DNA of 64,000 nt from an uncultured Eubacteriales bacterium (GTDB lineage Bacteria > Bacillota > Clostridia > Oscillospirales > CAG-272). Below, one piece after another: positions 22,387 to 40,175 of this stretch; within the stretch, counting starts at the first letter, position 1; each line of letters opens with the position of its first letter. The notes below the pieces were generated by a model, which was not told the origin of the DNA, searched no databases, and saw only the letters and a program-made list of their open reading frames with translations. The position numbers and the translations under genes are program-made. The stretch lies in the NCBI GenBank assembly GCA_963614875.1, contig CAVEFC010000001.1:99808-163807 (forward strand), in the 5' to 3' direction.

Positions 22387-22641
22387 ATGGCAAGCAATAA
22401 ATCTCTCGTTCCCGAGGCTAAGGAAGCCCTCAGCAGATTCAAAATGGAAGCTGCCGGCGAAGTTGGCGTAAATCTTAAGCAGGGCTACAACGGTGACCTT
22501 ACTGCCAAGCAGGCAGGCTCCGTCGGCGGTCAGATGGTTAACAATATGAACCCCGTACGAACTATGAAATTCGACCGCCACAACAGAATATCACAGGGAC
22601 ACAAAATAACCGTCAGGTACTCGTTTTCCCTTACCGTATAA
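22387..22641 (+). pseudogene. ssp: Alpha/beta-type small acid-soluble spore protein gene, 3-prime end displaced by element insertion
   Basis: Residues 1-51 (MASNKSLVPEAKEALSRFKMEAAGEVGVNL...KQAGSVGGQMV) fit the SASP consensus. After codon 51 the sequence (NNMNPVRTMKFDRHNRISQGHKITVRYSFSLTV) is unrelated to SASPs. Confidence 0.75.
22521..22560 (+). other. attL junction (core AA at 22540-22541)
   Basis: Host ssp sequence runs up to GGTCAGATGGTT-AA, then element sequence CAATATGAAC-CCCGTACG. Shares 16 of 24 positions with attR around the core. Confidence 0.65.
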
Positions 22642-22766
22642 GACATTTGGAATATCAGTACATAATTTTTAATTATTGCCTGAGTATAAAATCCCTTGTT
22701 TGCGCATATACTGATGATGGGAGAAAATCCCGCCGGGGAAATGAAATGTTTTTTCGATAAAGGGTA

Positions 22767-22795
22767 TTGCATTTTCTTCGGAAGTATGGTATAAT
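22767..22795 (+). promoter_or_regulatory. Sigma-A type promoter upstream of the DUF3800 gene
   Basis: TTGCAT, 17 nt, TATAAT with a TGG extension. Confidence 0.55.
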
Positions 22796-22840
22796 ACAAA
22801 CAAAGAAGATGGGCTGGTCTCCGGACCCGGGTCCACCTGC

Positions 22841-22869
22841 GGCGGGGATGTTCCCCGCCATTTTCTTTA
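22841..22869 (+). terminator. Terminator-like hairpin in the DUF3800 leader
   Basis: GGCGGGG-atgtt-CCCCGCC followed by ATTTTCTTT, only ~12 nt before the ATG. Preceded by the palindrome GGACCCGGGTCC. Confidence 0.4.
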
Positions 22870-22881
22870 AGAGGAGTGTAA

Positions 22882-23568
22882 ATGATGAGCGAACTCAGTA
22901 TATTCGTTGACGAATCGGGCGATTTCGGCACATACGAGCCTCATGCGCCGTTCTATTTGTTTACACTCGTATTTCATGACCAGCGCAGCTCAATTGAAGC
23001 TCAGATAAGACATTTGGAACATGGACTTGCAGACATCGGCTTTGATGTGAAGCATTGCTTCCATGCCGGTCCCATCATACGCCGCGAGGAAGATTATCAA
23101 AATCTTTCAATCACAGAGCGCAGAAAGTGCCTTAACCGTATTCTGACATTCGCTAAAAATTGCGATATATCCTACATCACTTTTTCGGTTGAGAAAAAGC
23201 ACATGTCGGATTCAATCGGCTTGACGGTTGCGCTATCAAAGCAGCTTTCTGCATTTATACGCGGAGAATATGCTTTCTTTGCGCAATTTGACAAGATTAT
23301 CGTTTATTATGATAACGGACAAGTTGAACTGAACAAGCTTCTGGCTTCAGTTTTCGCCGTCATGCTTCCGCAAGCGGAATTCCGAAAGGTGCTTCCTGCC
23401 GATTACAGATTATTTCAGGTTGCCGACCTCTTTTGCACATTGGAGCTTGTCTGCTTGAAAGACGAACACCATATCATGTCAAAATCCGAAGAGGCTTTTT
23501 TCGGCTCAATGAGAGATATGCGAAAGAATTATCTCAAGCCGATGTACAGAAAACGCTATATACACTGA
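22882..23568 (+). CDS. DUF3800-domain protein
   Basis: N-terminal LSIFVDESGDFG motif typical of DUF3800. 228 aa. Confidence 0.6.
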   Translation: MMSELSIFVDESGDFGTYEPHAPFYLFTLVFHDQRSSIEAQIRHLEHGLADIGFDVKHCFHAGPIIRREEDYQNLSITERRKCLNRILTFAKNCDISYITFSVEKKHMSDSIGLTVALSKQLSAFIRGEYAFFAQFDKIIVYYDNGQVELNKLLASVFAVMLPQAEFRKVLPADYRLFQVADLFCTLELVCLKDEHHIMSKSEEAFFGSMRDMRKNYLKPMYRKRYIH

Positions 23569-23585
23569 AAATTAAAGAATATAAT

Positions 23586-23619
23586 AAAAATCGCTGCCTG
23601 ACAAGCAGCGATTTTCTTT
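23586..23619. terminator. Bidirectional terminator between convergent genes
   Basis: AAAAATCGCTGC-ctgacaa-GCAGCGATTTTCTTT. Confidence 0.7.
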
Positions 23620-23997
23620 CTATCCTTTTACCATTGTGTCGAAGCAGAAAAGAGCAGCCGAGAAACCGAGGGAAACCACGGTAGAGTCGGTTGATATTAT
23701 TCCTGCCATGTAGCATATGCAGACAGCAGTCATTACACCGGCGGAAAAAATCCGAATCAGTTCACTTTTGATGGTTGACAGAAATGTCGGTGGCGGTTCC
23801 GACTCTGCTATCTTCTGCTCGACCGGTAAACCGAGCAGGTCGATAAGTTTCTCCAAATGCTCTTCGCATGGCGCAGACAAGCCACGCTCCCATTTTGAAA
23901 CCGCCTTTCCCGATATTCCGAGCATCGCACCAAGTTCTGATTGCGTCAACCCGCGTTCTTTCCTTTTTTGTAATATCAGATTGCTTATATTATCCAT
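23620..23997 (-). CDS. XRE-family HTH regulator with C-terminal membrane segments
   Basis: LQKRKERGLTQSELGAMLGISGKAVSKWERG, then a hydrophobic tail. 125 aa. Confidence 0.7.
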   Translation of the reverse strand: MDNISNLILQKRKERGLTQSELGAMLGISGKAVSKWERGLSAPCEEHLEKLIDLLGLPVEQKIAESEPPPTFLSTIKSELIRIFSAGVMTAVCICYMAGIISTDSTVVSLGFSAALFCFDTMVKG

Positions 23998-24099
23998 ATC
24001 AACCTCCGTAAACTGTTTGGTTGAATATAGTATTGACCAAATTAAATGAAAATCTGCAAAGTTGATTGATGCAGCGATATTTGGTGCACATAAGCAGTC

Positions 24100-24148
24100 A
24101 GTTATCGGGGCATATTTTTACAAAGTTAAGATTTATGCCCCGATAACT
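24100..24148. repeat. 14-bp perfect inverted repeat
   Basis: AGTTATCGGGGCAT (24100-24113) and ATGCCCCGATAACT (24135-24148). Confidence 0.8.
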
Positions 24149-24178
24149 TGGCAAATCAATATATAAGCCCACCTTCTT

Positions 24179-25099
24179 TCAGATCTCAGACCAATCGATG
24201 AACACATAAAGATAATAATCCTCAAGGGTTGCCGGAACATTTGCCGCCGTTTCCGTCGGTCTGATATCCGAAAGAACCCGCAACCTGACGGATTGCAAAT
24301 CGTCCTCATCGCGCGCAATGCTTATCACGCGGTGCTTTTCCTGCATGGAAAAAATATCTTTTTCGCTTACGGGTATGCTCCATACCTTGCCGTCGATTTT
24401 TTTGATCAGCTCATGCGGAGGAGCTTTTTCAATTATAACGCCATTTTTCAGCATGATAATATCACGCGCGATGAACTCAACGTCGCTCACAACATGCGTT
24501 GCGATTATGACAATTTTGTTCAACGCTATCTGCGAAATATAATTCCGTATGGCGATTCTCTGCTTTGGGTCAAGCCCAGCTGTCGGTTCGTCGAGTATAA
24601 GGATTGAAGGGTTACCGAGAACTGCCTGCGCGAGCGCAAGTCGTTGCTTCATTCCGCCGGACAGCGCTCCGATTCTGCGTTTTGAAACGTCGTCCAGCTC
24701 AACCGCAATAAGTATTTCGTTTATCTGTTCGGCTATATATTGCTTTCTTTCTTTTGTCCCGAGCTCACAGCCGACGTCCTTTAAGGTTGCCATATACCAC
24801 ATAAAGCTTTCAACGGTGAAGTTCGGATAAAACCCCGGATACTGCGGCATAAACCCCAGCTTTTTTCGGAATTCTGCGCCGAGCTTTTTTATGTTTTCCG
24901 GAGCTTTCCCGTCGTCACCGAAGAAAATCTCGCCGGAATCGGCTTTCAGATTATCTGTAATAATATTCATAAGCGTCGATTTCCCCGCTCCGTTAGGGCC
25001 CAAAAGCGCATATATTCCGGGCTGAAAATCTGCGGAAAAGCAGGAAAGCGCCTGATTTTTACCGTATGCCTTGCTTAACTCTTTAATGGATAAAATCAT
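24179..25099 (-). CDS. ABC transporter ATP-binding protein
   Basis: Walker A GPNGAGKST, signature LSGGMKQR, Walker B ILILDEP. 306 aa. Confidence 0.9.
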   Translation of the reverse strand: MILSIKELSKAYGKNQALSCFSADFQPGIYALLGPNGAGKSTLMNIITDNLKADSGEIFFGDDGKAPENIKKLGAEFRKKLGFMPQYPGFYPNFTVESFMWYMATLKDVGCELGTKERKQYIAEQINEILIAVELDDVSKRRIGALSGGMKQRLALAQAVLGNPSILILDEPTAGLDPKQRIAIRNYISQIALNKIVIIATHVVSDVEFIARDIIMLKNGVIIEKAPPHELIKKIDGKVWSIPVSEKDIFSMQEKHRVISIARDEDDLQSVRLRVLSDIRPTETAANVPATLEDYYLYVFIDWSEI

Positions 25100-27429
25100 A
25101 ATCTTCCTCCTTTATGTATGCGTCTGAGCGAAAAAGTGAAAGAACAGCCGACGAAGATAAATACAATGGCATACGCTATGGCAAACCATGCATATACAGC
25201 CGAAGGCGTTGTCTCCGCCGAAAGACGATACAACGAATCGGCGTCCGTCAATTTGCTTATGTCGATATAACCGAAAAATTTCACCCCCGCCGCCTGCAGA
25301 AGTCCTGGGGCGAATATAAATATCGCCGACGTCACATACGCGGATAAATTGTCCTTTATAAAGTATGATATCGCAAAGCATGCCGAGGCGGCAAGCACCG
25401 CTCCGAGGAGCGAAAATGCAAACACAGAGCCGATGTATTGCCCAAACGATAAAGATGTTTGAGCAAAGGCGTATCGTGTCATACTGACAAGCAATGCGCC
25501 TTTCGGAGGCATACCCAACTTCACGGCAAAGCAAACAAGATCAATTGCTTTGAGCAAAACTGTTGCCGAAACCGCATAGATCAGGGTAAACAGATATTTC
25601 GCCATGAATGTGTCTGTTCTGCCCTTAAGAGTCGTGCCAAGCAAAAATGACGGCGATGACGACGATGATGTCTTTCGGCGCTCCATCGAAAAGCCGCTGA
25701 TACTCAAAACGCACAGAAACGCTATCAGTATCCAGTCCGTTCCGGCACCAAGATATTTATAACAATACAGTTCGTTTACAAATGACCCCGTGACGCCCTT
25801 ATTATACAGCGAGCCGAGATATCCCGATTGCTTCATAATGTCGCCGAGCACACGGATTTTCATCTGTGCAGCCGAATAATCGGCGCAATATACAAGATAA
25901 TCATCTATCGACATTTTTTTGGAAAAATACGCCTCTGTGTGTTCGCCGTATTTTTCAACAATGGCATTACAGTTATCATATTCGTCTCTCAGATATGCCG
26001 CTTTTTCGCTTGAATATTCCCCTTCGATTTCGGCAATATATCCGGTGTATATGCGGTTATATGACGTGTCGTCAATCTCAAAATAGCTTGCGGCATAGGC
26101 GCATTTTATGATAACAACCGCGGCAAGTAGGAAAATTATCCATATACGTTTGCGTTGCTCAAAAGATAAAAGGCTTGTATCATACAACGTCGCCTTTTTA
26201 CGCACTTCTTTCAAGCTACGCGCTTTTTCGTTCTTTCTTGCAGAAGCTCTCCTTTTGCGCGCCGAATTGCTTACACGGGCAAAACCGAAACGGTTGACAA
26301 AAAACGCGGCGACAAGAAGAATAGCTCCCGATAATATGCTGACCGGTATTATCGATACCGGATGAGCTATAATATCCAAAGCGCGATATCTCGAAAAGAG
26401 TTCTTTCAGATTGAATATCGACCAGAAGTTTATATATTTCGCCTGTCCCGACTTTATAAAATCGGCGGAGGACATAAGAAAACCTCCGAAAAGAAGCACT
26501 GCGCCACCTATAATTCCCGCTGTGAATTTTCTCGCGACAGATGATATCGCCAGAACGACAGACGAAAAAACCGCAACCGTCAGCATTCTTATAACAAGCG
26601 TAATTAGCAGATATCCCGCTATGCTTATGTTGTACGGGCAAAGCAGAAACGCATCGACCGACTGTATCGGCACAAAAGGATCAGAAAAGCCGAGCGCCGC
26701 CCACGTTGCCAAAAGCGACGAAAGATTGAACGCCTCCGTCAGCACGGCGCCTGAAATCATCGCGGCAAGGTATTTCGCCGCCGCTGTATTCTCCCTACCC
26801 TTTGCACAGGCCTTTTCTATTGCATAAAAGCCTGTATGATAATCGTTCACCGCAATCCACACAGAGCAGATCAAAACAGCGGCAAACACGAAAATAATTT
26901 CCGTACCAATACCGAAATATTCGTTCCAGCCGACAACGATCCCGTCGCCGAGCGAAATGTTTTCGTTCAGCGCCGAATATCTTTTTATCACCTGCTTCTG
27001 ATAGCGGTAATTATATGTATTAACATCTCCTTTTGAGTTTTCCGTCTGCTTTATTATGTTTGAAGACTGAGTTATTATCAGGTTCATCCTGCTGTGATAA
27101 TTTTTGTCCGCGTCAATAAACGAACAGACATACTCAAACAGCGAAATATCTTCAATAATTCCTTCACCGTATACGCTTTCCGTCACTCCGTCGTCCGACG
27201 AATAGAAATTATTTTCAATACGCTCCTTTTCTTTGTAAAACAGCTCTGGGTCGGATTTATACAGCGAATATACCGTAGCCGCCTGCCCGATATATCTGTT
27301 CGAGCGCGAATTTGTTTTCGCGGAAATTCCGCAGAAAACCGCATTTGCAATCAGCAAAGCGATGGCAAACATTATCAGATACAGCTGAGAGCACAGCTTT
27401 TTTATCTCGTAATATACGGTGGGTTTCAT
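25096..27429 (-). CDS. Large polytopic ABC-2-type permease-like membrane protein
   Basis: 777 aa with many hydrophobic segments in two blocks separated by a soluble region. Overlaps the ATPase start by 4 nt. Confidence 0.6.
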   Translation of the reverse strand: MKPTVYYEIKKLCSQLYLIMFAIALLIANAVFCGISAKTNSRSNRYIGQAATVYSLYKSDPELFYKEKERIENNFYSSDDGVTESVYGEGIIEDISLFEYVCSFIDADKNYHSRMNLIITQSSNIIKQTENSKGDVNTYNYRYQKQVIKRYSALNENISLGDGIVVGWNEYFGIGTEIIFVFAAVLICSVWIAVNDYHTGFYAIEKACAKGRENTAAAKYLAAMISGAVLTEAFNLSSLLATWAALGFSDPFVPIQSVDAFLLCPYNISIAGYLLITLVIRMLTVAVFSSVVLAISSVARKFTAGIIGGAVLLFGGFLMSSADFIKSGQAKYINFWSIFNLKELFSRYRALDIIAHPVSIIPVSILSGAILLVAAFFVNRFGFARVSNSARKRRASARKNEKARSLKEVRKKATLYDTSLLSFEQRKRIWIIFLLAAVVIIKCAYAASYFEIDDTSYNRIYTGYIAEIEGEYSSEKAAYLRDEYDNCNAIVEKYGEHTEAYFSKKMSIDDYLVYCADYSAAQMKIRVLGDIMKQSGYLGSLYNKGVTGSFVNELYCYKYLGAGTDWILIAFLCVLSISGFSMERRKTSSSSSPSFLLGTTLKGRTDTFMAKYLFTLIYAVSATVLLKAIDLVCFAVKLGMPPKGALLVSMTRYAFAQTSLSFGQYIGSVFAFSLLGAVLAASACFAISYFIKDNLSAYVTSAIFIFAPGLLQAAGVKFFGYIDISKLTDADSLYRLSAETTPSAVYAWFAIAYAIVFIFVGCSFTFSLRRIHKGGRL

Positions 27430-27469
27430 AACCGCTGCCCTTTCTTTTTTTTGAATGTACCTTTGTTTT

Positions 27470-28615
27470 TTATTTCGGCACTTTGGTTTCTTCTCCCGTT
27501 TTCAGATTCTGTGCAATCCGGCGCGACACGGGACTGCCCGACGAATAATCGGTTTCCGTATATACAATATAATTGTCACCAAGTGCGATATAGCATCTTG
27601 AAATCTCTTTATCCTGAAGATCATAAACCTCTCTTGACGAGCCGGTTTCAAACGAATATTCGTAAAGAATATGCGAATACTCTTCCACAGCCGAGCCTAC
27701 TTCGCGCGGCTCGGAAAGATAATAATAAAACTTATCGCCGCAGTTCATTCCCATACTTACGTTTGACAATATCTTTTCCTTCTTTGAAACATCGGAAATC
27801 GGACAGCTGATAATATCCACCGTCATATACGACGCCCCGTCAAACTCCGTTGCCTGAAGGTTATCGCAATATACGATGTAATCATTTGCAATAAACATCT
27901 CTGCTCTCAGGACGATGTTGAAAAGATACTGCGTGTCATCAAGTGCCAAAGAGCATGAAAAAAGCTGTCCGGCAGAGTCAATAAAATAAATACGGTTTTT
28001 ATACACTGTCTCAACACGATAAGACTTCTTATCCGGGTTCTCCATTTTCTTATAACCGCTACCGTCTTTGCCCATCACATGAATATTTGTTCCGTGCTCC
28101 CCTTCGTTTGTCGTATATATTATCCAATCACCGTAAATAGCCAGCGACTGTATATTTTCTGCAATTTCATCCTGTATCACGGTCACTTTGTTTGTGCCTG
28201 TATCAAATGATGTGATCTGATAGAAATTTTTCATTCTGTTTGTTTGCTTGTCAATAGCATATTTGTAATATGCTCCAATCAACACATGCTTGTCATTGTT
28301 TTCTTTGGTTGCTTTCGGATCGACCGCAAAATAAACCGCCGGAGAGAATATATTTGCAAACGGATTTTCTTCGCCGGATGCAAGAACATCTCCATAAAGC
28401 GGAAGTCCCGTCGTCTGAACGTTTGTCAGATCCTGATATTTTATCGAAAACGTGCTTGTGTCATAATAATAAAGAATGTTATCATAAAGATAAATGTTGA
28501 AGCCCTTGGCGCAGACGTCGTCTGTGCTCTGCTCCGGCTTTGAGCACGCGGAAAAAACAAATGCCAAAAGAATAAAAATCGCGAGCAGACATATAGTAGC
28601 TTTGTATTTCTTCAT
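27470..28615 (-). CDS. Lipoprotein, probable beta-propeller (DUF5050-like)
   Basis: Signal peptide plus lipobox (VFSAC). Repeated YY/IYY..D motifs. 381 aa. Confidence 0.5.
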   Translation of the reverse strand: MKKYKATICLLAIFILLAFVFSACSKPEQSTDDVCAKGFNIYLYDNILYYYDTSTFSIKYQDLTNVQTTGLPLYGDVLASGEENPFANIFSPAVYFAVDPKATKENNDKHVLIGAYYKYAIDKQTNRMKNFYQITSFDTGTNKVTVIQDEIAENIQSLAIYGDWIIYTTNEGEHGTNIHVMGKDGSGYKKMENPDKKSYRVETVYKNRIYFIDSAGQLFSCSLALDDTQYLFNIVLRAEMFIANDYIVYCDNLQATEFDGASYMTVDIISCPISDVSKKEKILSNVSMGMNCGDKFYYYLSEPREVGSAVEEYSHILYEYSFETGSSREVYDLQDKEISRCYIALGDNYIVYTETDYSSGSPVSRRIAQNLKTGEETKVPK

Positions 28616-28723
28616 AAATATCTCCTTGCCACAAAATCAGTAATAAATGAGCCAAAAAACGTTTCTGTGCAAATAGCGGAGGTTGTAAAATCATAGATAT
28701 ACAGCCTCCGCACGAGCTATGTA

Positions 28724-29191
28724 TTAATTAAAAACAGAAATTTCAATACTGGGAGGATTAAACGACACAGTTGAGCCCGGAACGGTCGCATAATATGTCC
28801 CTTTCAAAAATGTGATCCCGCTTTCCTGAGAGAGGCGAACATCTTCAGTGCGGATGAATTGGCCTATAATAACCCGATCCTGTGAAGCAACAATAGGAGT
28901 AAGCAACGTTACACCCGATCCTGTGACAATTATTTGCATATCAAGCAAAGTATAGGTCGGTGTGCCGTTTCCCGTCGGGTCAAATCTGTTTGTCGCAAAA
29001 ATTCTTTGAAAAGCATATACGCCAGATTCCGTATATTTGTTTGCCTGGAGAGAGCCCAACACCGTAAACGTCGGGTCATCCGTATTGCGTGTATACTCCA
29101 TATAATGCATAGCATTTGCCGTAACGCAAAATGCAAACATAGAAATAATCAGCAGAGTAGCTGTAATGATTCTGAACAAATTCTTTTTCAT
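28724..29191 (-). CDS. Secreted protein of unknown function
   Basis: N-terminal signal peptide (MKKNLFRIITATLLIISMFAFCVTANA). 155 aa. SD gaaagga. Confidence 0.5.
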   Translation of the reverse strand: MKKNLFRIITATLLIISMFAFCVTANAMHYMEYTRNTDDPTFTVLGSLQANKYTESGVYAFQRIFATNRFDPTGNGTPTYTLLDMQIIVTGSGVTLLTPIVASQDRVIIGQFIRTEDVRLSQESGITFLKGTYYATVPGSTVSFNPPSIEISVFN

Positions 29192-29491
29192 GGTTATGAT
29201 TTCCTTTCAAATAAATTTTTAATTTTTCCTTCGGTAAGCGGATAACCAAAACTCGAGATTGCCTGATTATCCGCCCCAACAAATGATTTGCAGGCGATGA
29301 CCAGCGGAAGCGAAAACGCCCGTCAATCGCGAAAAAACAACACATTCGACATACTTCTTCAGCGAAATCATCTTCAACACCCCCACCCGAATGATATATC
29401 GTGCGCAGTGCTTGCAACAATGTTTTATGTTCACAATATTTCCAATATTATATTATCATATATTGTGGCATTTGTCAATTAAGTTCAACAA

Positions 29492-29635
29492 ATATTTTGT
29501 TGTAAGCAATGTTGGCAACGCGGTGTTTGCCAAACTTTGACGAGCACTCATTCTATTCGCTACTTCATACTACCACGCGAAATCAATTTTGTCAAGTATA
29601 TTTTGTCACAAGCAATATTGACAACACGATATTTG
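29492..29635. repeat. Two diverged 38-bp direct repeats upstream of padR
   Basis: Copies at 29492-29529 and 29598-29635 match at 30 of 38 positions. Most differences are G-to-A. Confidence 0.75.
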
Positions 29636-29646
29636 TATGATATAGT
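29603..29646 (+). promoter_or_regulatory. padR promoter with overlapping palindromic operator
   Basis: TTGTCA-N10-TGACAA palindrome (29603-24). TTGACA (29618-23), 17 nt, TATAGT (29641-46). Confidence 0.55.
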
Positions 29647-29685
29647 AGATTTACACTATTAAGCGCTTAAATAGGTGAAAGAAAA

Positions 29686-30060
29686 ATGATACAAAGAAAC
29701 GACATTGAAGAAAACCTCAAAAGGGGAATTCTCGAAATGCTCATTCTGAAAATGCTGTCGCAAGAGGATATGTACGGCTATCAGATGATAAACGAAATGA
29801 ATATAAGAGGAAAGGGGCTGATAGACATCAAAGAGGGGTCTTTGTACGGTCCCCTATATCGACTCATCGGCAAAAACTATATTTCCGAAAACAAAGTCCT
29901 TGTAGGAAAGCGCAGAACGCGCGTTTATTACCACCTTGAACCACTTGGAGTCGAATATTTAGACACGATAATCGATGTATATTCAAAAATCATCGAGGGT
30001 GTAAATCTGATTATGAATTATTCTGCAGAGGAAAAACAAAATGAAGAAAACAATCAATAA
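29686..30060 (+). CDS. PadR-family transcriptional regulator
   Basis: GILEMLILKMLSQEDMYGYQMINEM...GSLYGPLYRL is the PadR wHTH pattern. Confidence 0.85.
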   Translation: MIQRNDIEENLKRGILEMLILKMLSQEDMYGYQMINEMNIRGKGLIDIKEGSLYGPLYRLIGKNYISENKVLVGKRRTRVYYHLEPLGVEYLDTIIDVYSKIIEGVNLIMNYSAEEKQNEENNQ

Positions 30061-30409
30061 AGATATTAAAAAGTATTGCTCCGAAGTGAAAAAGCTGCTC
30101 GCTTGTCCGGGTGGTATAAAATTTGCATTCATATCGGAGCTTAAAAACAGAATTTATGAATATATCGAAGAACACCCTGATGATGAAATAACAATCAACG
30201 ATATTGAAAACAGGTTCGGCACACCCAAGGACATTGCATCATCATTTGCGTCGGCAGAAGATATGCAGCGCCTGCACAAAAAGGCAAAGAAATACACATT
30301 TTATAAGATATTATCGGTAGCTCTTTTGCTGACGCTTATTCTTACCATATACATATTAGCATATCTTGTTACCAATGAGTACACAATTATTGTTACAAAT
30401 GATTTTTAA
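30041..30409 (+). CDS. Membrane-anchored PadR-associated protein (DUF1700-like)
   Basis: Overlaps the padR end. Soluble N-domain (ELKNRIYEYIEEHPD...FGTPKDIASSF) plus one C-terminal TM, the usual gene partner of PadR. Confidence 0.5.
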   Translation: MKKTINKDIKKYCSEVKKLLACPGGIKFAFISELKNRIYEYIEEHPDDEITINDIENRFGTPKDIASSFASAEDMQRLHKKAKKYTFYKILSVALLLTLILTIYILAYLVTNEYTIIVTNDF

Positions 30410-30433
30410 AAACTATTCTTGAGGAGAATTCCT

Positions 30434-30937
30434 ATGAAAAAACATATATTTTCAATTTTACTAACATTCTTTCTTGTGTTTACATCAATGCTATCTTCTT
30501 TCGCCGCAAGCAATGTTATACCAAACACTTCAAAATCAACTGCCACCATATATTTAAATGACGGAAGATATATTGTGGTAACACTCATAACAGATGATAT
30601 ATCTTCATTATCACTTAATTCAAGGCAATCAACATCTTTTACAAAAATCGGAAACAAGTTTGCTACTTGTTATGACAAGAATAATAATCTCGAATGGAAA
30701 TATACTTTATCTGCTGAATTTTCTGTAGTAGAAGGAGTTTCGGCAACCTGCACAAACGCTACATATACACAAACAATTTACGCAAGCGGCTGGTCTTTCA
30801 GTAATGGCAATGCCACAAAATCCGGTAACACTGCATATGGCGCAGGAACTTTCAAGAAAAAAGTGTTATTCGTGACGACAAACACTGTAAATATCGACAT
30901 AAACATTTCCTGTGACGCATACGGCAACCTTTCATGA
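30434..30937 (+). CDS. Secreted protein of unknown function
   Basis: ATG 30434 with a gaggag SD. Signal peptide MKKHIFSILLTFFLVFTSMLSSFA. Confidence 0.5.
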   Translation: MKKHIFSILLTFFLVFTSMLSSFAASNVIPNTSKSTATIYLNDGRYIVVTLITDDISSLSLNSRQSTSFTKIGNKFATCYDKNNNLEWKYTLSAEFSVVEGVSATCTNATYTQTIYASGWSFSNGNATKSGNTAYGAGTFKKKVLFVTTNTVNIDINISCDAYGNLS

Positions 30938-31057
30938 TGTAGGTTTATTTGAAATTTGCAATATTTTATTGAGCGATAACGCCAGATCCTTTTTTAATCC
31001 CAAAATTTGTATCAAATAATTCAAGGCATGAGAAAAGCGATATATAACAATTGTAGA

Positions 31058-31933
31058 TCAGTGTATTGTATTTACTTTGAACATACAGATACTATAATTG
31101 TTACTCTTCTCCATAAACTCTACAGTTATTTGATTTATATACATCCTGCTCAGCGCCGAACTGCCGAGATACGCCTCCACATTCGTCACGGGCAGGACGC
31201 ACCAATCGCTGTCGGTTGGTTTGTTGGCGATATAGTATTCAAGCAGTGTCCTTGTTACATTCAGGGGAACAGACTTCGGTGTAACCTCCGCAAGCCACTT
31301 TTCCTGTTCGGCGGTCAATCGGATAGATTCTGTCCGAAGCGCGCCAAGCTCCAGTGCATCGGCAATCACATCATCAAAACGAAGGATCAGGTCGCCTTTC
31401 GTGCCTTCCGCGAAGATCGATATCTGAAACTGAATGACCTTTTTCCGCCATGCGTCTTCGAGCTTTTCCATGTTGTCGGCAAGTTTATGTGTGGCTTTGC
31501 CCACTTTGTCGCGGTTGGTGTTTATGAAATCCGCGATGCCGCGCAGGTGGCGGATATACCATCCACAGCCGTTCTTGTCTATAAGTTCGGGAAACGCATC
31601 GTGAAGCTCACGGAAATCTGTTTTGAGCTGCCACTCCGCCTTTGGGGTGGCATTCTTTCTGTCAGGGATACTGCACCATGCGCAGAGAGCACGGCGGGCA
31701 TCGTCGGTGCGCTCATACGGATCACCGCCTTTCGGTGTCCCGTCCGGGTTGTGAAAGAGATATCCCCTCGCAAGGACAGTCAATATCCGCGCGAAACCGT
31801 AGTTTTCCATGAGCATATCCAGGGTAAACCGACCGAGAAAGCCGTTGTCCTTCTTGTTTCGGACGGCATAGGTCGGTTCTTTGGTATAGGAGAGAAACTC
31901 TGCCCATTCGTTTGTTATTGATTCCTCTATCAT
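31058..31933 (-). CDS. Hypothetical protein, translationally coupled partner of the RdRP/YonO-like polymerase
   Basis: 291 aa. Its start ATG overlaps the polymerase stop (ATGA). I recognised no family. Confidence 0.6.
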   Translation of the reverse strand: MIEESITNEWAEFLSYTKEPTYAVRNKKDNGFLGRFTLDMLMENYGFARILTVLARGYLFHNPDGTPKGGDPYERTDDARRALCAWCSIPDRKNATPKAEWQLKTDFRELHDAFPELIDKNGCGWYIRHLRGIADFINTNRDKVGKATHKLADNMEKLEDAWRKKVIQFQISIFAEGTKGDLILRFDDVIADALELGALRTESIRLTAEQEKWLAEVTPKSVPLNVTRTLLEYYIANKPTDSDWCVLPVTNVEAYLGSSALSRMYINQITVEFMEKSNNYSICMFKVNTIH

Positions 31934-34900: not shown

Positions 34901-35001
34901 GGCGTCAGTGCAAAAGAATAGGTGCCCTGATCGATTGGTTTAGCATAGGGCAGCATAGCCTGCACCGACAGTCGCCGTATAAGATATCTGAGTTTCGCCA
35001 T
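31930..35001 (-). CDS. Two-barrel RNA polymerase homologue of the eukaryotic-type RdRP / phage YonO family
   Basis: Start set at the second ATG (35001), which has GGAGG 5 nt upstream. Motifs: SFQIRMPYIKGMV (34165-34200), RNPH (33376-33387), GGADYDGDMV with DYDGD at 33226-33240, VGQISNAAL (32998-33024), LEIDSAKSG (32878-32904). Confidence 0.8.
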   Translation of the reverse strand: MAKLRYLIRRLSVQAMLPYAKPIDQGTYSFALTPAQTKSIIMGDGDTWQEDNAIFFQAMCILRGEKYKQSTSDTPISDLADVILYLDFKGIFDRDADNPKAALMQKKTEAMFSPEGITLNFGQGDARYLAFERSGSMSRSAMLSFVRADIYEELSRRMTVGMTLGVCQLSKLYAYNGLLFSSGTRIETDMLWDKDAIVVIDNPTAVYPDVDVITVEDRTGIGDVRNYERVEKKSDVKVTLFDGEGILSPALAEEIDRLYCGKHIHTSFQIRMPYIKGMVHEVDFHGLFREATVTKITDLWGVEHPIERVRMILTRSQFKGCGWMTENGLSFSEYLKRLRAYRHTLYITGVNRTDSEQSTDLNYQFLSTLALSGEQFRPVGLPFDWMKDRMDKEDEQNDSDTGAWLTKTTEEIYYRLLNDEWFQFDYYVDHAPKNPRSRGYRLAGMLHRNDLLLAEKEYRRELDRAANTVLRNFARGNLLVRGGVAYLSADLTLFLAELLKPYTDGNRNAEEIYRELLDARCRYTTAYGLTGSHMTAILRNPHIAKNEEVVVYPQSHEHGIRRRYLSHLSGVVMVEPWSLIAERLGGADYDGDMVKVIYEPVICESIASHYKETANPFEDRFASRNNLPLLSIPTAEPQLWDANDLHARFEAVKSTFSSRVGQISNAALDRSILAYDENADADIKEKCRQESETLAILTGLEIDSAKSGIKPDLSAYLHTDDKPCSRYLKYKRLLEDAEDRPAWYEDTFAEQMKDYIDGTDWESVTANVEKLPYYAHMLKKHTPRKVIKPAPSAELFTFARHSNWKDNLDPSLFQPIRELIDTYDHCLRRIRSRKHPTPGNSKRRDIDRILTMRNQENTYDTDSLYALFTGIAAARIKTVRDALRAEQWHFMKPEERLSFLQEYLPEEAFRAYDGLFSDFRMGGYRVFGDIICDIDDTNRLADKSKLHYKNDTPEMTAMIDAYHTRLPGVDYREAVATACRLCLAKITPPFQAIRYAEAMDRRDFIFDVLLEEAEFYLIGGGNG

Positions 35002-35027
35002 GGAGACCTCCGTAATTGTTTTTTTAT

Positions 35028-35056
35028 AGTATACCATAGATTGCCGAGAAAATCAA
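35028..35056 (-). promoter_or_regulatory. Promoter of the polymerase operon
   Basis: Minus strand: TTGATT (35056-35051), 17 nt, TATACT (35033-35028) with a TGG extension. Confidence 0.6.
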
Positions 35057-35299
35057 TTTGTATCTTTATAACTACTCCCATATTGTTAAGAAAATGCAAA
35101 AGCAAACAAACTGGTATCTGTATAAAAATGGCGTAACAAGCGGAACAGATAAAACTCCGGTTGCCGGTTTTTGTTTCGTTTGTTACGCCAAATTCAGATA
35201 AGCAGGTGCTTTCTTTTCGCAGAATTGTATTTATAAATACTGCTCACATATCATCGGAAAGGAGGAAAAGCGAATGATAGAAATTGCGGACAATATACA

Positions 35300-35460
35300 C
35301 GGGTCGTAGCGAGACGACTTCCCGCTTCAGCGGGGCAAGCAGAGCGTTTGGACTCCCACCGCCAAAGGCGGTCGGAGCCAAACGCATTATTTTTTCGGGC
35401 GGAAGCCCGAACCCACTTGCCTTTTCTTTGAGAAAAGAAAAGGGTAAGCCAAAAGAAACG
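35300..35460 (+). promoter_or_regulatory. Highly structured intergenic region upstream of mobC; candidate oriT
   Basis: Consecutive hairpins: GTCGT..ACGAC, CCCGC-ttca-GCGGG, a long stem GCGTTTGG..CCGCC-aaa-GGCGG..CCAAACGC (35344-35385) followed by a T-run, TTCGGGC-gga-GCCCGAA, and CTTGCCTTTTCTTT-gag-AAAAGAAAAGGGTAAG. Confidence 0.35.
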
Positions 35461-35497
35461 AATTTAATTATATCAATTTTCAGAGAGGTGATTTACA

Positions 35498-35842
35498 ATG
35501 GCGACCAAAGGTCGCAAACGAAACAGAAAAAAGTCCTTTTGGGTGACAGACAGCGAATGGAAAGCAATTGAAAAGATTGCCGCCGGTATCGGCATGGGCA
35601 TCGGTGAATATCTTCGCATCTCTGCACTCGGCAAGACAATCTATCAGATTGAAGAATTGAAGCCGGTTCTTCATGAGCTGAAATGTATCAGCCGCAATCT
35701 CAATCAGCTTACCATGCTTTCACATCAGGGCGTGGTGCGGACGGTCAATCTGACCGCAACGGCGGATGGCATCGGTCGGTGCTTTGAGGCAATCAACAAG
35801 CTGTACGCCGACACCGATGCGGTGATACAGGGTGGAGGTTGA
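35498..35842 (+). CDS. mobC: MobC-type relaxosome accessory protein (ribbon-helix-helix)
   Basis: KKSFWVTDSEWKAIEKIAA...LKCISRNLNQLTMLSHQG is typical of MobC/bacterial mobilisation proteins. Immediately upstream of the relaxase. Confidence 0.75.
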   Translation: MATKGRKRNRKKSFWVTDSEWKAIEKIAAGIGMGIGEYLRISALGKTIYQIEELKPVLHELKCISRNLNQLTMLSHQGVVRTVNLTATADGIGRCFEAINKLYADTDAVIQGGG

Positions 35843-35848
35843 TGTTCT

Positions 35849-38002
35849 ATGGCAACCGTTATTTTCATCAAGGAGAGCAAGCAGACGCCGAGTGCCATGC
35901 GCGGTTGTATCCGTTACTGCGTGCAGGAGAATAAAACCGTTGACGAAAACGGGAGGCAGTATGTCGGCGGTGTCAACTGCCTCGGTCAGCACGCTTATCA
36001 AGAATTCATGGCAACCAAAAATCTTTACGGCAAAGCCGATGGCACTTACTTCTATCAGTATGTGCAGTCATTTCTGCCGGGGGAAATTCAGTCTTACGAA
36101 GAAGCTCACCGCATCGGTCTGGAATTTGCCGGGAATTCCTTTCAAGGATATGAGGTCTTGGTTGCCACGCATCTGGACGCTTACGATGACGGCGGCGTTC
36201 AGAGAGTACACAACCATTTTATTGTCAATTCGGTCGGCTTTGAGGACGGCAGGAAGATTCACTTCACGCCGAACACCTTGCAGGAACTGCGGAAGATCAG
36301 CGATGACATCTGCCGTGACCACGGTCTGTCTGTGCTGCCTCCGTCGGAGCGCAGAAACGGTCAGGGCATCGGTACGCGGGAGTACCATGCAACGATGAGA
36401 GGCGAGGGATGGAAGTTCGGGCTGATCAATGACATTGACACTGCCATGACGCAGGCAGGCGACAGACGCGAGTTTTGTGATATCCTTGCTTCTGTCGGTT
36501 ATTCCGTTACCTGGACGGAGGAAAGAAAATATATCACATTCACCTGTCCGAACGGGCGCAAGGTTCGTGACAACAAATTACACGACAACAAATATACCAA
36601 GGAGAATTTAGAGTATGAATTCAGAATACGAAAACAAATTACAGAACACGCCGGCAGTCAGTTCCATGGACAAACTGAAAGCAGCATCCAGAACGGCAGT
36701 CAAGACAATCGAGGAAACACCGTATCAGCCGATTGTTTATGCGATTCCGAAGGAGGATTGGAACGCCTTTCGGGAATGGACGAAACAGGCGGTGACATTT
36801 CAACCCACGCTGTATCAGCAGATAGCGGCACTGACGACCAAGAAGGAATCAGAGGCTTACACGGACGAGATATGGAGCGAAATCCGGAATTGGGCGGAGG
36901 AGGTGACCGGAAACGTGCAGAAAACAGCGGAGAGCATTGTGCCGAGAGTGCAGACGCTGTTGAATCAGAACAAGGAGCTACTCGAACAGGATGGGAGGAT
37001 GCGCGAGCAGTTTATCTCAGGTCTCGACTTGAAGGAAACCAATCGCATCAAAGAATTCAAAGATCTGCTTATGGGTATGAAGCGGTGGATCATCACGGCG
37101 ATTGCATCGACCATCGGCGGTTCGGCGATTTTAAGTACGGTGATCTGTCTTCTGATGAGATAACAGCGTTCTTCAAAAGCGAACGGAAAGAAACCGACCT
37201 GCCCGATGACGAACCGACAGAAACGGAAGATCTGACACAGAGAAAATACAATGATCTGCGGGAGCAGGCGGAGCTTGGTAACCTATATGCCGGGTGCCGT
37301 CTCTCCTGTATTTTGTTTGACGAGGACAGTCCGTACTACGATGCGTACGGCGGCGCATATTACCTTGAATCCTCCGCAAAGCAGGGCTACCATGTGGCGC
37401 AGTATCGGCTCGGCAAGATGATCTATGAGGGTGGTTATTACCGTCGTATTCCCGAGAACGCCGAGTATTGGCTTTTGCTGTCCGCAAGGCAGAACAACCC
37501 GTATGCCGAGGCATTGCTGGGGCGATTGTACCTCATCGGAGATTTTCTACACCTTGACCGCAAGGCTGGCGTCGATCTTCTGTACGATGCAATACGCCAT
37601 GGGAACGCTCACGCTGCATATACGCTCGGCAAATATTACGCCGACGGAAAGTACCTGAAAAAAGACATTCCGAAAGCTGTCGCGCTTTTGGAGCAGGCGG
37701 CGCAGATGGGCGACCTTCATGCGGAGTACAGGCTCGCCAAGATCTATCTCTTTGAGTCGGACTGTTTTGATTGGCAGAAAGCCGTGGAGTATCTGAACAC
37801 GGCTGCGCACAAGGGCAACGAAAATGCCTATCGGGCATTGCAGAACATGAGCCAAAGCACGGTGATCTCTATCACCACCGGCATTGCCGACCTGGTCGGC
37901 GATCTGTCTGCTGTGTTCGATGAAAGACCGGCGGTGGAGGATTGCACTACCATGCCGGAACGCAGGGAAAGGAAGAAATATGAGTATGAGCAGAGTTTAT
38001 AG
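35849..38002 (+). CDS. Relaxase/mobilization nuclease fused to a C-terminal Sel1-like repeat domain
   Basis: N-terminal relaxase domain with HLDAYDDGGVQRVHNHFIVN (His-triad type). Low-complexity middle. Multiple Sel1/TPR-like repeats from ~37270 (AQYRLGKMIYEG..., AAYTLGKYYADG..., AEYRLAKIYLFE...). Confidence 0.7.
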   Translation: MATVIFIKESKQTPSAMRGCIRYCVQENKTVDENGRQYVGGVNCLGQHAYQEFMATKNLYGKADGTYFYQYVQSFLPGEIQSYEEAHRIGLEFAGNSFQGYEVLVATHLDAYDDGGVQRVHNHFIVNSVGFEDGRKIHFTPNTLQELRKISDDICRDHGLSVLPPSERRNGQGIGTREYHATMRGEGWKFGLINDIDTAMTQAGDRREFCDILASVGYSVTWTEERKYITFTCPNGRKVRDNKLHDNKYTKENLEYEFRIRKQITEHAGSQFHGQTESSIQNGSQDNRGNTVSADCLCDSEGGLERLSGMDETGGDISTHAVSADSGTDDQEGIRGLHGRDMERNPELGGGGDRKRAENSGEHCAESADAVESEQGATRTGWEDARAVYLRSRLEGNQSHQRIQRSAYGYEAVDHHGDCIDHRRFGDFKYGDLSSDEITAFFKSERKETDLPDDEPTETEDLTQRKYNDLREQAELGNLYAGCRLSCILFDEDSPYYDAYGGAYYLESSAKQGYHVAQYRLGKMIYEGGYYRRIPENAEYWLLLSARQNNPYAEALLGRLYLIGDFLHLDRKAGVDLLYDAIRHGNAHAAYTLGKYYADGKYLKKDIPKAVALLEQAAQMGDLHAEYRLAKIYLFESDCFDWQKAVEYLNTAAHKGNENAYRALQNMSQSTVISITTGIADLVGDLSAVFDERPAVEDCTTMPERRERKKYEYEQSL
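36615..37163 (+). CDS. Embedded +1-frame ORF, MobB-like (coiled-coil protein with C-terminal TM anchor)
   Basis: AAGGAG SD 8 nt upstream of the ATG. 182 codons with protein-like composition and a terminal hydrophobic helix (WIITAIASTIGGSAILSTVICLLM). The overlapped relaxase frame is low complexity here. Confidence 0.5.
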   Translation: MNSEYENKLQNTPAVSSMDKLKAASRTAVKTIEETPYQPIVYAIPKEDWNAFREWTKQAVTFQPTLYQQIAALTTKKESEAYTDEIWSEIRNWAEEVTGNVQKTAESIVPRVQTLLNQNKELLEQDGRMREQFISGLDLKETNRIKEFKDLLMGMKRWIITAIASTIGGSAILSTVICLLMR

Positions 38003-38085
38003 TATCACATTTTTATTATCTGAATTATTTTCTCTTGAAGGGAGGAAAATATATCTGAACAATCCTGAAAGAACGAGGTAACCGG

Positions 38086-38265
38086 ATGGGGAAAGTTATA
38101 ACTGACGAAGAACGCGAAAAACGCATGGCAGAGGATATGTGGCTTAATTATTTCAATCGTTATCTGTTTGAGAGCGGTACAATCTCAGAGAAAGAATACA
38201 AGAGAATGACCGAAAAGATTGCCGCAAGAAAAGCAAAACGCTATCCTGAAAGGGACGCAAGGTGA
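38086..38265 (+). CDS. Small conserved-looking protein (59 aa), not in the supplied ORF track
   Basis: ATG 38086 with GAGG 8 nt upstream. Translation: MGKVITDEEREKRMAEDMWLNYFNRYLFESGTISEKEYKRMTEKIAARKAKRYPERDAR. Lies just upstream of the recombinase. Confidence 0.5.
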   Translation: MGKVITDEEREKRMAEDMWLNYFNRYLFESGTISEKEYKRMTEKIAARKAKRYPERDAR

Positions 38266-38309
38266 GCGGGTTCACCTCGGAGTGCTTAAAGCACTCCGAT
38301 ACATAAATG

Positions 38310-38334
38310 TTTGTCAAAGATATTATTTGACAAA
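38310..38334. promoter_or_regulatory. Perfect 9-bp inverted repeat (candidate operator) upstream of the recombinase promoter
   Basis: TTTGTCAAA-gatatta-TTTGACAAA. Confidence 0.5.
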
Positions 38335-38348
38335 TTTCGATTTCTGTA

Positions 38349-38377
38349 TTGCAATATAAGGTCGATTGTGGTATAAT
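38349..38377 (+). promoter_or_regulatory. Recombinase promoter
   Basis: TTGCAA, 17 nt, TATAAT with a TGG extension. Confidence 0.55.
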
Positions 38378-38423
38378 GCAATCAATAGATAATGATAAAA
38401 CGAATTTACGAAAGGGCGATGAT

Positions 38424-40112
38424 ATGGATATCTTAAATATCAGAGCATTATTACGAACCAAATCAATATATGATATCCCCCTGCGGGTCACATATTACGC
38501 GCGCGTTTCTTCTGAAAGTGATGAACAGCTCAACTCACTCGATAACCAGATTGCATATTATGAAGACTTGATCAGGAGAAACCGCGCATGGACATATGTT
38601 CCGGGTTATGTTGACGAGGGGCTTTCCGGTATCTCTACAAAGAAGAGAAAACATTTCAATGAGATGATTGCTGATGCTAAGGAGGGTGCATTTGACCTAA
38701 TTATAACAAAGGAAATTTCCCGATTTGCCCGTAATACGCTTGACTCTCTGCAATATACAAGAGAATTGCTCGGATGGGGAGTGGGCGTATTTTTTCAAAA
38801 CGATAACATCAATACGCTTGATGAAGATGCAGAGCTTCGGCTTACAATTATGTCCTCCATCGCGCAGGATGAGCTTCGCAAGCTCTCCTCGCGTGTCAAA
38901 TTCGGGCATCAGCAAGCTATCAAGTCCAATGTGGTTCTTGGCAACAGCCGTATCTTCGGATATAAAAAGGATGAAAAACGCCTTGTCATTGACGAAAGCC
39001 AGGCGCCGATGGTGCGCGATTTGTTCAGGCTTTACGCGACAGGCGAATACAGCATGAAGCAACTCGAAACGCTGTTTTACGAACAGGGGTACCGTAATTA
39101 CAACGGCAACAAAATTGCTCATACCACAATGTCGGGTATCATATCCAATCCGAAATATAAGGGCTATTATGTGGGCAACAAGGTTCGTATTGTGGATATG
39201 TTTACAAAAAAGCAGAAGTTTTTGCCTCCTGAAGAATGGGTCATGTTTAAAGATGAAACAGGAGAAATTGTCCCCGCCATCGTATCCGAGGAACTATGGG
39301 ATAAAGCAAATGAGGTATTGACCCGCAGAAGTGAGGATGTTAAAAACCGTCAGGGTATCTGCAACCACGCCAATCTCCTGACAGGAAAATTATACTGCGC
39401 CCATTGCGGTGCCGCATATTACCGCCGTGAATCCAAAAGCAAGGACGGCACGGTCAATTCCAAATGGGTCTGCTCCGGAAAGATAAACAACGGTGCTGAT
39501 TCCTGCCCATCTTTCCCAATCTACGAGGATGAGATTAAGCCCATCCTGTTTGAGGTGTTCAGCGAAACACGGGTGGATGTGGAAGCCCTGCTTGCAAACT
39601 ACGAGGAAATGTTCCGGTCAATGGAAGCAGATGATGAAACCGCGGGGCAGATGGAAGAACAAAAGCGGATTATAGCACTTGCCGACCAAAAGAAAAATAA
39701 ACTTCTCGAGCTTGTAACGACAGGCGCCATTACGACGGCAAATTTCAAATCCATGACCGCCTCATGCGACAGGGAAGCGGAGGAAGCGCAGAAAACGCTC
39801 ACGGAACTTGAAGAGCAACTGTTTACAAAAGAGGAATACCGCAAGCACATCGGCGAGGTAAAAGCAAGACTCGATGCTGCTGTCCGTGACGCAAGCACAG
39901 GTATGATTACAAACGAATTTGTTGCCCAATATATTGATAAAATCATAGTCACATCAGACGGAAATGATACAGCGAAGCTTGAAATCAAGATATTTACGGG
40001 CAAAAACACGGAAAAATGGCTCAAAAAGCTCAGTGAACGACATCGGGGTCGTACGGGTGTCATGTCTAAGAAAATGATCGAGTCATATGAAAATTCGATC
40101 AAAACAAAGTAA
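38424..40112 (+). CDS. Large serine recombinase (TnpX/SpoIVCA-type)
   Basis: Catalytic domain YARVSSESDEQLNSLDNQ...ISRFARN, recombinase domain, Cys-rich zinc ribbon (CAHCGAAYY...WVCSG) and a coiled-coil. The last 15 codons are host ssp sequence. Confidence 0.9.
   Translation: MDILNIRALLRTKSIYDIPLRVTYYARVSSESDEQLNSLDNQIAYYEDLIRRNRAWTYVPGYVDEGLSGISTKKRKHFNEMIADAKEGAFDLIITKEISRFARNTLDSLQYTRELLGWGVGVFFQNDNINTLDEDAELRLTIMSSIAQDELRKLSSRVKFGHQQAIKSNVVLGNSRIFGYKKDEKRLVIDESQAPMVRDLFRLYATGEYSMKQLETLFYEQGYRNYNGNKIAHTTMSGIISNPKYKGYYVGNKVRIVDMFTKKQKFLPPEEWVMFKDETGEIVPAIVSEELWDKANEVLTRRSEDVKNRQGICNHANLLTGKLYCAHCGAAYYRRESKSKDGTVNSKWVCSGKINNGADSCPSFPIYEDEIKPILFEVFSETRVDVEALLANYEEMFRSMEADDETAGQMEEQKRIIALADQKKNKLLELVTTGAITTANFKSMTASCDREAEEAQKTLTELEEQLFTKEEYRKHIGEVKARLDAAVRDASTGMITNEFVAQYIDKIIVTSDGNDTAKLEIKIFTGKNTEKWLKKLSERHRGRTGVMSKKMIESYENSIKTK
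40049..40088 (+). other. attR junction (core AA at 40068-40069)
   Basis: Element arm CGTACGGG-TGTCATGTCT-AA, followed by host GAAAATGATCGAG.... Confidence 0.65.
40070..40112 (+). pseudogene. ssp: Displaced 3-prime end of the ssp gene (encodes ..KKMIESYENSIKTK*)
   Basis: Joining 22387-22541 to 40070-40112 gives ...GSVGGQMVKKMIESYENSIKTK. This matches the SASP consensus GS(V/Y)GG.MVK(K/R)M(I/V)E and gives a 65-aa length. Confidence 0.7.
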
Positions 40113-40141: not shown

Positions 40142-40175
40142 AAAAAGCTCTCCGATTTTTTTCGGAGAGTTTTTT
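40142..40175 (+). terminator. Intrinsic terminator (original ssp terminator, now also serving the recombinase)
   Basis: AAAAAGCTCTCCGA-tttttt-TCGGAGAGTTTTTT. Confidence 0.8.

Follow-up and report, generated by a model that had tools for sequence, protein, structure and literature searches.

Integrative mobilizable elements (IMEs) of Bacillota that use a serine recombinase, such as IME_Rho_tet (PMC12904643; reviewed in PMC5704250), have the recombinase at one end and encode a relaxase with an accessory protein and no mating pore; IME_Rho_tet also carries variable cargo, inserts into a small conserved open reading frame (ORF) and is widely spread among gut Clostridia. An element with these features lies in a stretch of 64,000 nucleotides (the window) from an uncultured Eubacteriales bacterium of the Oscillospirales lineage CAG-272 (GenBank assembly GCA_963614875.1, contig CAVEFC010000001.1, positions 99,808 to 163,807), where it splits ssp, a gene for an alpha/beta-type small acid-soluble spore protein (SASP). 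With a probability that we put at about three in four, the segment 22542-40069 of the window is an IME that was inserted site-specifically and disables one SASP gene, other copies being assumed to compensate. IME_Rho_tet targets mostly MAFF2 ORFs, whereas the target here is an alpha/beta-type SASP gene; the window element differs further in that its deduced attP lies inside the recombinase ORF, the C-termini are exchanged and there is no resistance gene. The serine-recombinase IME of gut Clostridia is already known (PMC5704250, PMC12904643), and what is new is ssp as the target, the number of species involved (at least 51) and the reciprocal swap of protein tails. A literature search found no publication in which ssp serves as an attachment site or in which an ssp gene is interrupted, in agreement with a preliminary description of this DNA, made from its letters and ORFs, which knew of no element in a forespore-expressed ssp gene.

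Elements that interrupt sporulation genes have been described as well, namely skin in sigK, SPbeta in spsM, vfbin in spoVFB, vrin in spoVR and gin in gerE; they excise only in the mother cell, and the germ line keeps them (PMC4191935, PMC5595907, PMC5025042). As in those cases, an element with a large serine recombinase (LSR) splits a sporulation-specific gene in-frame at the present locus, and its precise excision would rebuild the gene. The genes split by the known elements are mother-cell genes, whereas SASPs are proteins of the forespore, to which the logic of those elements cannot be extended. In comparison with skin, SPbeta and gin, the window element is predicted to be mobilizable, is polymorphic within species and has recently been transferred between species, and no developmental control was detected.

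The integrase of myxophage Mx8 belongs to the tyrosine-integrase family. In Mx8, attP is located inside the integrase gene and integration alters the enzyme (PMC6070905), while mycobacteriophages such as BPs have attP inside the repressor gene and show integration-dependent immunity (PMC4557955). These phages and the window element have in common that attP lies in an ORF of the element and that the free and integrated forms encode different protein isoforms; here, in contrast, the enzyme is an LSR and the host partner is protein-coding and in the same frame, so that both proteins would swap tails. Tn4451/Tn4453 (TnpX) and Tn5397 (TndX) are clostridial mobilizable or conjugative transposons with relaxed target choice. 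They share with the window family their Clostridia hosts, an LSR, a circle on excision and the need for other elements in transfer, and TnpV is found in one relative of the window element (contig L121); unlike them, the window family is strictly site-specific and has a MobA/VirD2 relaxase, and no DUF4368 domain was detected with Pfam. A TndX-like clade is mentioned in PMC10083194.

The split ssp gene, its empty counterparts and the attachment sites

The element, 17,528 bp in length, interrupts the SASP gene at a dinucleotide AA that is now found at both 22540-41 and 40068-69. The ORF at 22387-22641 (forward strand; 84 aa in the integrated state) matches positions 1-51 of the 59 positions of the Pfam SASP profile PF00269, where the match ends, and continues with 33 unrelated codons. 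At the opposite end of the element, the recombinase ORF terminates at 40112 with ...GVMSKKMIESYENSIKTK and a stop codon. The shared AA places the two ORFs in one codon phase, and the rejoined halves encode a protein of 65 aa whose profile match extends over positions 1-58 of 59, the Pfam E-value improving from 3.9e-23 to 1.3e-29. The GSVGG..V(K/T)(K/R)(M/L)(V/I) helix of full-length SASPs is found in this reconstructed 65-aa product only. The break point aligns between GSVGGEIT and KRLV of SspC (PDB 2z3x), within the most conserved SASP motif. Truncation after residue 51 by the insertion most likely inactivates this SASP copy. SASPs are redundant in spore formers, and the insertion would be tolerated if other ssp genes compensate.

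Uninterrupted counterparts of the reconstructed gene are present in other genomes. A protein search of metagenomes with the reconstructed SASP as query found uninterrupted genes whose products (P0002-P0005) are 100% identical over all 65 residues, and the residues 1-51 remaining in the window are identical to the same residues of these proteins. The reconstructed DNA aligns across the junction of empty sites without a break, and spoIIR directly follows the intact ssp on four contigs (L004-L006 and L125), the arrangement for which the preliminary description had suggested a search. Two host species in which both states occur allow empty and occupied sites to be compared at close range. In the first, L004, L005 and L006 are empty and L055, L057 and L119 occupied, the flank comparison having been run for L055 and L057 and L119 having been assigned by its neighbouring genes; in the second, Eubacterium sp. 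CAG:841, L125 is empty and L051 and L127 are occupied. In both species, flank identity between empty and occupied sites is 98-99%, and the overlap of the two alignments is exactly TAA. The lineage of the window is about 88% identical to CAG:841 in the element flanks; no empty site was found within it, and the nearest, that of L125, is 87-94% identical to the window. The earlier claims that a serine-recombinase element splits ssp and that rejoining gives an intact 65-aa SASP therefore stand, the first on the Pfam matches, the codon phase, the empty sites and dozens of independently occupied sites, the second on the uninterrupted metagenome genes for the identical protein; a terminator and spoIIR follow downstream, also as described.

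Two minor observations concern these matches. P0001, on a 738-bp ENA contig, is a 95-aa SASP with an internal duplication of about 30 residues, which may be an assembly artefact or real. Contigs L102 and L126 of the metagenome-assembled genome (MAG) H07689-L1_cleanbin_000002 are 94-97% identical to the window, and L126 encodes SpoIIR beside the recombinase; the MAG is labelled Sphaerochaetaceae, implying that it is mis-binned or mislabelled.

TAA is the identity common to attL, attR and attB, and the crossover is placed at its AA, the choice that is symmetric in attP and non-palindromic, as the core of a serine recombinase site should be. The deduced attP of the window element reads CGTACGGG-N10-AA-N10-CCCGTACG, an 8-10-AA-10-8 arrangement, and together with the TAA overlap it gives the short sites, 2-bp non-palindromic core and symmetric attP that are expected of an LSR. 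By hand count, attL and attR are identical at 16 of 24 positions around the core, the same figure as reported earlier. Both the AA core and the reconstruction of attP and attB agree with the empty sites and with the attP observed in a relative. In this relative, attP occurs on five contigs from at least three samples (L121-L123 and two more) and reads CGTACGGG-TGTCACGATG-AA-CAATATGAAC-CCCGTACG, exactly the predicted architecture; it was seen in Logan contigs only, with no match in the JGI and GTDB collections. The perfect 8-bp inverted repeat ascribed to attP is correct for the deduced attP of the window element, but it is not constant across the family, in which the left arm is CGTACGGG, CGTATGGG or CGTGCGGG and the right arm CCCGTACG or CCCATACG, one MAG combining CGTACGGG on the left with CCCATACG on the right. 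The idea that changes in one attP arm are compensated in the other is unsupported, as the arm variants pair inconsistently.

Exchange of C-termini between the recombinase and the SASP

The recombinase ORF (562/587 aa) carries the domains expected of an LSR. Pfam matches to the catalytic Resolvase domain (PF00239, E 1.2e-28, residues 49-194, with the motif YARVSSESDEQ), the Recombinase domain (PF07508, E 3.6e-19) and the zinc ribbon (PF13408, Zn_ribbon_recom, E 3.2e-12) bear out the identity that had been proposed for it. In the integrated state, the protein has lost a conserved 33-residue C-terminus and gained a 14-residue SASP end. The codons that follow the break in ssp were earlier called a non-SASP tail, which is right, but it was missed that these residues form the native, conserved C-terminus of the recombinase. 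The identity of the tail follows from relatives of the recombinase (P0241 and P0242, on contigs L121-L124, found by searching with a chimeric query of recombinase end plus tail), in which the recombinase ORF continues across the junction and directly into a tail homologous to the 33 codons. In 54 of 55 copies, the tail has a length of 33 codons; outside the att half-site its dN/dS is about 0.04-0.2 with dS > 1, indicating purifying selection. Recombinase relatives with as little as 27% identity, among them a full-length protein of 580 aa, still have the conserved tail, in which R, R, H and Y are invariant. These comparisons indicate that attP is situated within the recombinase ORF and that integration exchanges the C-termini, the SASP receiving the recombinase tail and the recombinase the SASP tail.

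It could be argued that the hybrid 84-aa protein, consisting of SASP residues 1-51 and a basic tail of 33 residues, remains functional as a spore protein that binds DNA, in which case the insertion would be near neutral and the tail conserved partly for that function. The ORF open past the junction, its constant length and its purifying selection would fit such a protein, as would the richness of the tail in Arg, Lys and His and the abundance of hybrid proteins in databases. However, the conservation of the tail in distant recombinase relatives explains the selection with no need for a function in the SASP, the break interrupts the motif that is most conserved among SASPs and the tail brings a proline four residues past the junction, so that a working hybrid seems very improbable. 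Many 84-aa proteins annotated in databases as SASP and many 560-587-aa proteins annotated as recombinase are hybrids made by integration, and one hybrid protein, P0313, alone is present on 112 contigs.

The two recombinase isoforms, the free one with its native 33-residue tail and the integrated one with the SASP tail, could sense the integration state and bias the enzyme towards integration or excision. Linked with this idea is a reversible cycle in the forespore, in which excision would restore ssp and the circle would ride in the spore and reintegrate at germination. Taken jointly, the two proposals are unlikely; if the cycle exists, no earlier case would be on record of a germ-line element that reversibly interrupts a forespore gene. 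The enzyme is a natural LSR with well-defined attB and attP, and since its C-terminus is not the same in the free and the integrated state, it is of interest for directionality control and for recombinase engineering.

A sigma-70-type promoter is predicted in front of the recombinase gene (Table 1). Its -35 and -10 hexamers are kept in 8 of 8 aligned relatives and the spacer has few substitutions; the region upstream of the recombinase is nearly identical across relatives, and its conservation shows only that sigma-70-like boxes are kept. The small ORF directly upstream of the recombinase gene, encoding 59 aa and present in every relative examined, has no family match, NCBIfam included, and by its position is a candidate for a directionality factor or for a regulator. 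A 79-aa homologue, recognized by eye, adjoins a 54%-identical recombinase (contig L154, 6149-6388, reverse strand), and on L059 the 59-aa ORF is present in two tandem copies. In L126 and L127, the two closest species representatives, the recombinase segment before the att half-site is different and 11 residues longer (...ASARSADRSPQLAGRTGVMS).

Site-specificity, spread and nature of the element

The distribution of the junctions points to a strictly site-specific element family. The attL junction is present in 51 genuine species-representative genomes, always after GGQMV, and the cut is at the same place in all of at least 37 different N-terminal SASP halves, long-type as well as short-type. 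All of the 120 best recombinase homologues (at least 98% identical) terminate in a SASP C-terminus, and these ends vary (...ESYENSIKTK, ...ESYENSIK, ...EKYENDIKASK, ...QSYETGMQGK and ...EKYENDLKNGNR), the 120 occupying at least five different genomic neighbourhoods. The exact 27-nt attB is uninterrupted in 44 other species representatives. Genes of the ssp family are thus a widely used landing site in gut spore-forming Clostridia, the insertion being present in no fewer than 51 species representatives and on hundreds of contigs from metagenomes. A more distant homologue, 54% identical, is encoded by GenBank MT837325.1 (L154, 7121 bp, filed as 'UNVERIFIED: Bacteriophage sp.') and ends in ...SKKMIKAYEESMK, also a SASP tail, so the choice of ssp as target is old within the clade. 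By appearance, the ORFs neighbouring this recombinase resemble host housekeeping genes, and the record is a fragment of a bacterial chromosome.

The same data bear on the possibility that the element is a prophage remnant, or a serine transposon of low specificity like Tn4451 or Tn5397, that hit ssp by chance. The LSR at one end of the element and the TnpV gene beside attP in one relative speak for such an origin, as does the filing of the related fragment just described in GenBank as 'Bacteriophage sp.'. However, no phage structural or packaging gene was found by Pfam among the ORFs of the element, the insertion point is the same in the 51 species and in 120 of 120 best recombinase homologues, and the relaxase is of the MobA/VirD2 type. 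A phage origin was rejected, the sole close 'phage' record being a mislabelled chromosomal fragment with a SASP-tailed recombinase, and a TnpX/TndX-type transposon was rejected likewise, the family using one site, within ssp, instead of many targets. An origin of either kind is extremely unlikely.

Recombinase modules share 96-97% DNA identity between hosts with flanks that are only 76-88% identical or cannot be aligned, and an identical 587-aa product (P0133) is found in two host species. The near-identity of recombinases (98-100%) in hosts with diverged or unalignable flanks implies that the spread is horizontal. In one MAG (JAZODV01), two ssp genes are occupied (L076 and L096), one of the short and one of the long type and with different tail variants; the occupation of two paralogues in one MAG shows that ssp is multi-copy in at least some hosts.

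The gene content agrees with an integrative mobilizable element. The recombinase, the NikA-like protein and the MobA/VirD2 relaxase are present, and no phage structural or mating-pore genes were detected; among the scanned ORFs of at least 100 aa in 22542-40069, no mating-pore, type IV secretion or coupling-protein match was found in Pfam or NCBIfam, five ORFs without a Pfam match (155-777 aa) being undecidable in this respect. The element has its own integration and excision module, ends defined by an att site and a relaxase of its own. It may be envisaged that the recombinase joins attP in the 3' end of its own gene to attB in the SASP coding sequence, with crossover at AA. This attB would span the codons for GGQMV and KKMIE, on the two sides of the crossover in the conserved DNA-binding helix. 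Since attB belongs to the most strongly conserved coding stretches of spore-forming Clostridia, many species are accessible to the family, and so are two or more ssp copies within a genome. Genes for SASPs should be silent in vegetative cells, and the element would exploit a highly conserved gene that is silent there. Transfer, by analogy with known IMEs, would involve an excised circle, which the NikA-like protein and the relaxase would nick, and the mating pore of another element; mobilization, like any regulatory effect of the tail swap, is an inference. Spore DNA may be less well protected in carriers if no other ssp copy compensates and the element does not excise.

Several findings weigh against this interpretation. 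Every contig seen in the lineage of the window is occupied (L001-L003, L102 and L126), and neither the exact attP junction nor a circular form of the window element had a match in collections of genome, metagenome and viral contigs. If ssp copies are scarce, a simple knock-out of two of them, as in one MAG, would come at a high cost; the 64-kb window contains only one ssp gene. Neither a directionality factor nor an oriT was identified in the element.

Some of these points would be easier to accommodate if the element were a developmentally regulated intervening element, which the recombinase and a directionality factor excise during sporulation to restore ssp in the forespore. Such a mechanism would require a non-replicating circle that is carried in the spore and is either reintegrated at germination or lost. 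The split is precise and in-frame and excision would restore a perfect gene; the apparent fixation in the window lineage and the two occupied ssp copies of one MAG would be easier to tolerate if the insertion were reversible; and the conserved small ORF adjoins the recombinase gene, a place where some directionality factors occur. Alpha/beta SASPs are made in the forespore under sigma-G in Bacillus and Clostridium. The protein encoded here, with its match to PF00269, should accordingly be a forespore protein and its gene not a mother-cell gene. There are precedents of serine-recombinase elements whose excision restores a sporulation gene (PMC4191935, PMC5595907, PMC5025042), but all documented cases are in mother-cell genes, and the genome of the mother cell is discarded (PMC4191935). 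The preliminary description had placed the element alongside skin, SPbeta, vfbin and gin, a framing that finds no support in view of its intact relaxase and NikA-like genes, its polymorphism within species, its horizontal spread and the sigma-70-like promoter of its recombinase. In addition, neither an attP nor an attB junction for the window element was found in its own lineage. A scan for sigma F, G, E and K consensus sequences found none near the recombinase or the 59-aa ORF, although it was powerless, since the ssp promoter itself was also missed. Developmental excision is therefore considered unlikely, and the mobilization genes, the within-species polymorphism and the recent spread between species argue for an ordinary mobile element.

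Composition of the element

The features of the locus are collected in Table 1. Relatives retain a left module (DUF3800 protein and regulator) and a right module (NikA-like protein, relaxase, 59-aa ORF and recombinase), while the middle is exchanged, and element sizes range accordingly from 10.3-kb versions (L051 and L057) to the 17.5 kb of the window.

Table 1. Coordinates of the split gene, the element and the adjoining host gene in the window
Feature	Position	Strand	Description
ssp 5' part	22387..22541	+	51 codons and the first two bases (AA) of codon 52; ends ...GSVGGQMV
attL	22519..22560	+	attB-derived left half GGTCAGATGGTT; core AA 22540-41; attP-derived right half CAATATGAAC CCCGTACG
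Recombinase native C-terminus, now fused to ssp	22542..22641	+	last base of junction codon, 32 codons and stop; 33 residues (N NMNPVRTMKFDRHNRISQGHKITVRYSFSLTV, stop)
DUF3800-XI RNA motif	22810..22856	+	Rfam RF02975, 53.8 bits (gathering score 37.8); directly upstream of DUF3800 gene
DUF3800 protein, conserved left-end module	22882..23568	+	PF12686; also in L051, L057, L059
HTH_3 (XRE-type) regulator, conserved left-end module	23620..23997	-	PF01381, E 4e-13; also in L051, L057, L059
Variable cargo block	24179..30937	.	no DNA match in L051-L060, L114, L117
ABC ATPase (cargo)	24179-25099	-	Pfam
777-aa protein (cargo)	25096-27429	-	no family match
381-aa protein (cargo)	27470-28615	-	
155-aa protein (cargo)	28724-29191	-	
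PadR (cargo)	29686-30060	+	Pfam
DUF6120 (cargo)	30041-30409	+	Pfam
172-aa protein (cargo)	30419-30937	+	
291-aa partner of RdRP-family protein	31058-31933	-	
RdRP-family 1035-aa protein	31930-35037	-	PF05183, E 3.6e-15
Inverted repeat, candidate oriT	35344..35385	+	upstream of nikA-like gene, beside relaxase operon
NikA-like relaxosome accessory protein	35498..35842	+	PF21983, E 2.7e-14
MobA/VirD2-type relaxase with C-terminal Sel1 repeats	35849..38002	+	PF03432, E 6e-29; conserved in relatives
Conserved 59-aa ORF	38086..38265	+	directly upstream of recombinase gene, in every relative examined
Predicted recombinase promoter, sigma-70-type	38349..38377	+	TTGCAA, 17 bp, TGgTATAAT; 10/12 matches and TG extension
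Large serine recombinase, integrated state	38424..40112	+	562 aa from ATG 38424; last 14 codons are ssp 3' end
attR	40039..40081	+	attP-derived left half CGTACGGG TGTCATGTCT; core AA 40068-69; attB-derived right half GAAAATGATCGA
ssp 3' part	40070..40112	+	G closing junction codon 52 (AAG, K), codons 53-65 (KMIESYENSIKTK), stop
ssp terminator hairpin	40148..40169	+	CTCTCCGA...TCGGAGAG, then T run
spoIIR, host gene, synteny anchor	40252..40833	+	PF09551, E 7e-41
attB junction, reconstructed			GGTCAGATGGTTAAGAAAATGATCGAG
attP junction, reconstructed			GGTGTCATGTCTAACAATATGAACCCCGTACG

Three proteins of the cargo block have no match in Pfam and two have none in NCBIfam. The pair formed by the RdRP-family protein and its 291-aa partner recurs in related elements (L052-L056, L058 and L117-L119), and neither of the two has a match in NCBIfam, PADLOC or PDB. 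The SPbeta protein YonO is an RNA polymerase with a fold like that of the RdRP family PF05183. In related elements, a DUF927 gene usually accompanies the RdRP-like pair; it is absent in the window element, and some relatives add it to their own set of genes, while L059 carries trypsin-like and Band_7 genes. At the left end, a terminator-like hairpin (22841-22859) overlaps the DUF3800-XI RNA motif. In the relative represented by L121, the DUF3800 module is replaced at the left end (733-2328) by genes for TnpV, for the toxin-antitoxin pair PhdYeFM/ParE and for an HTH protein.

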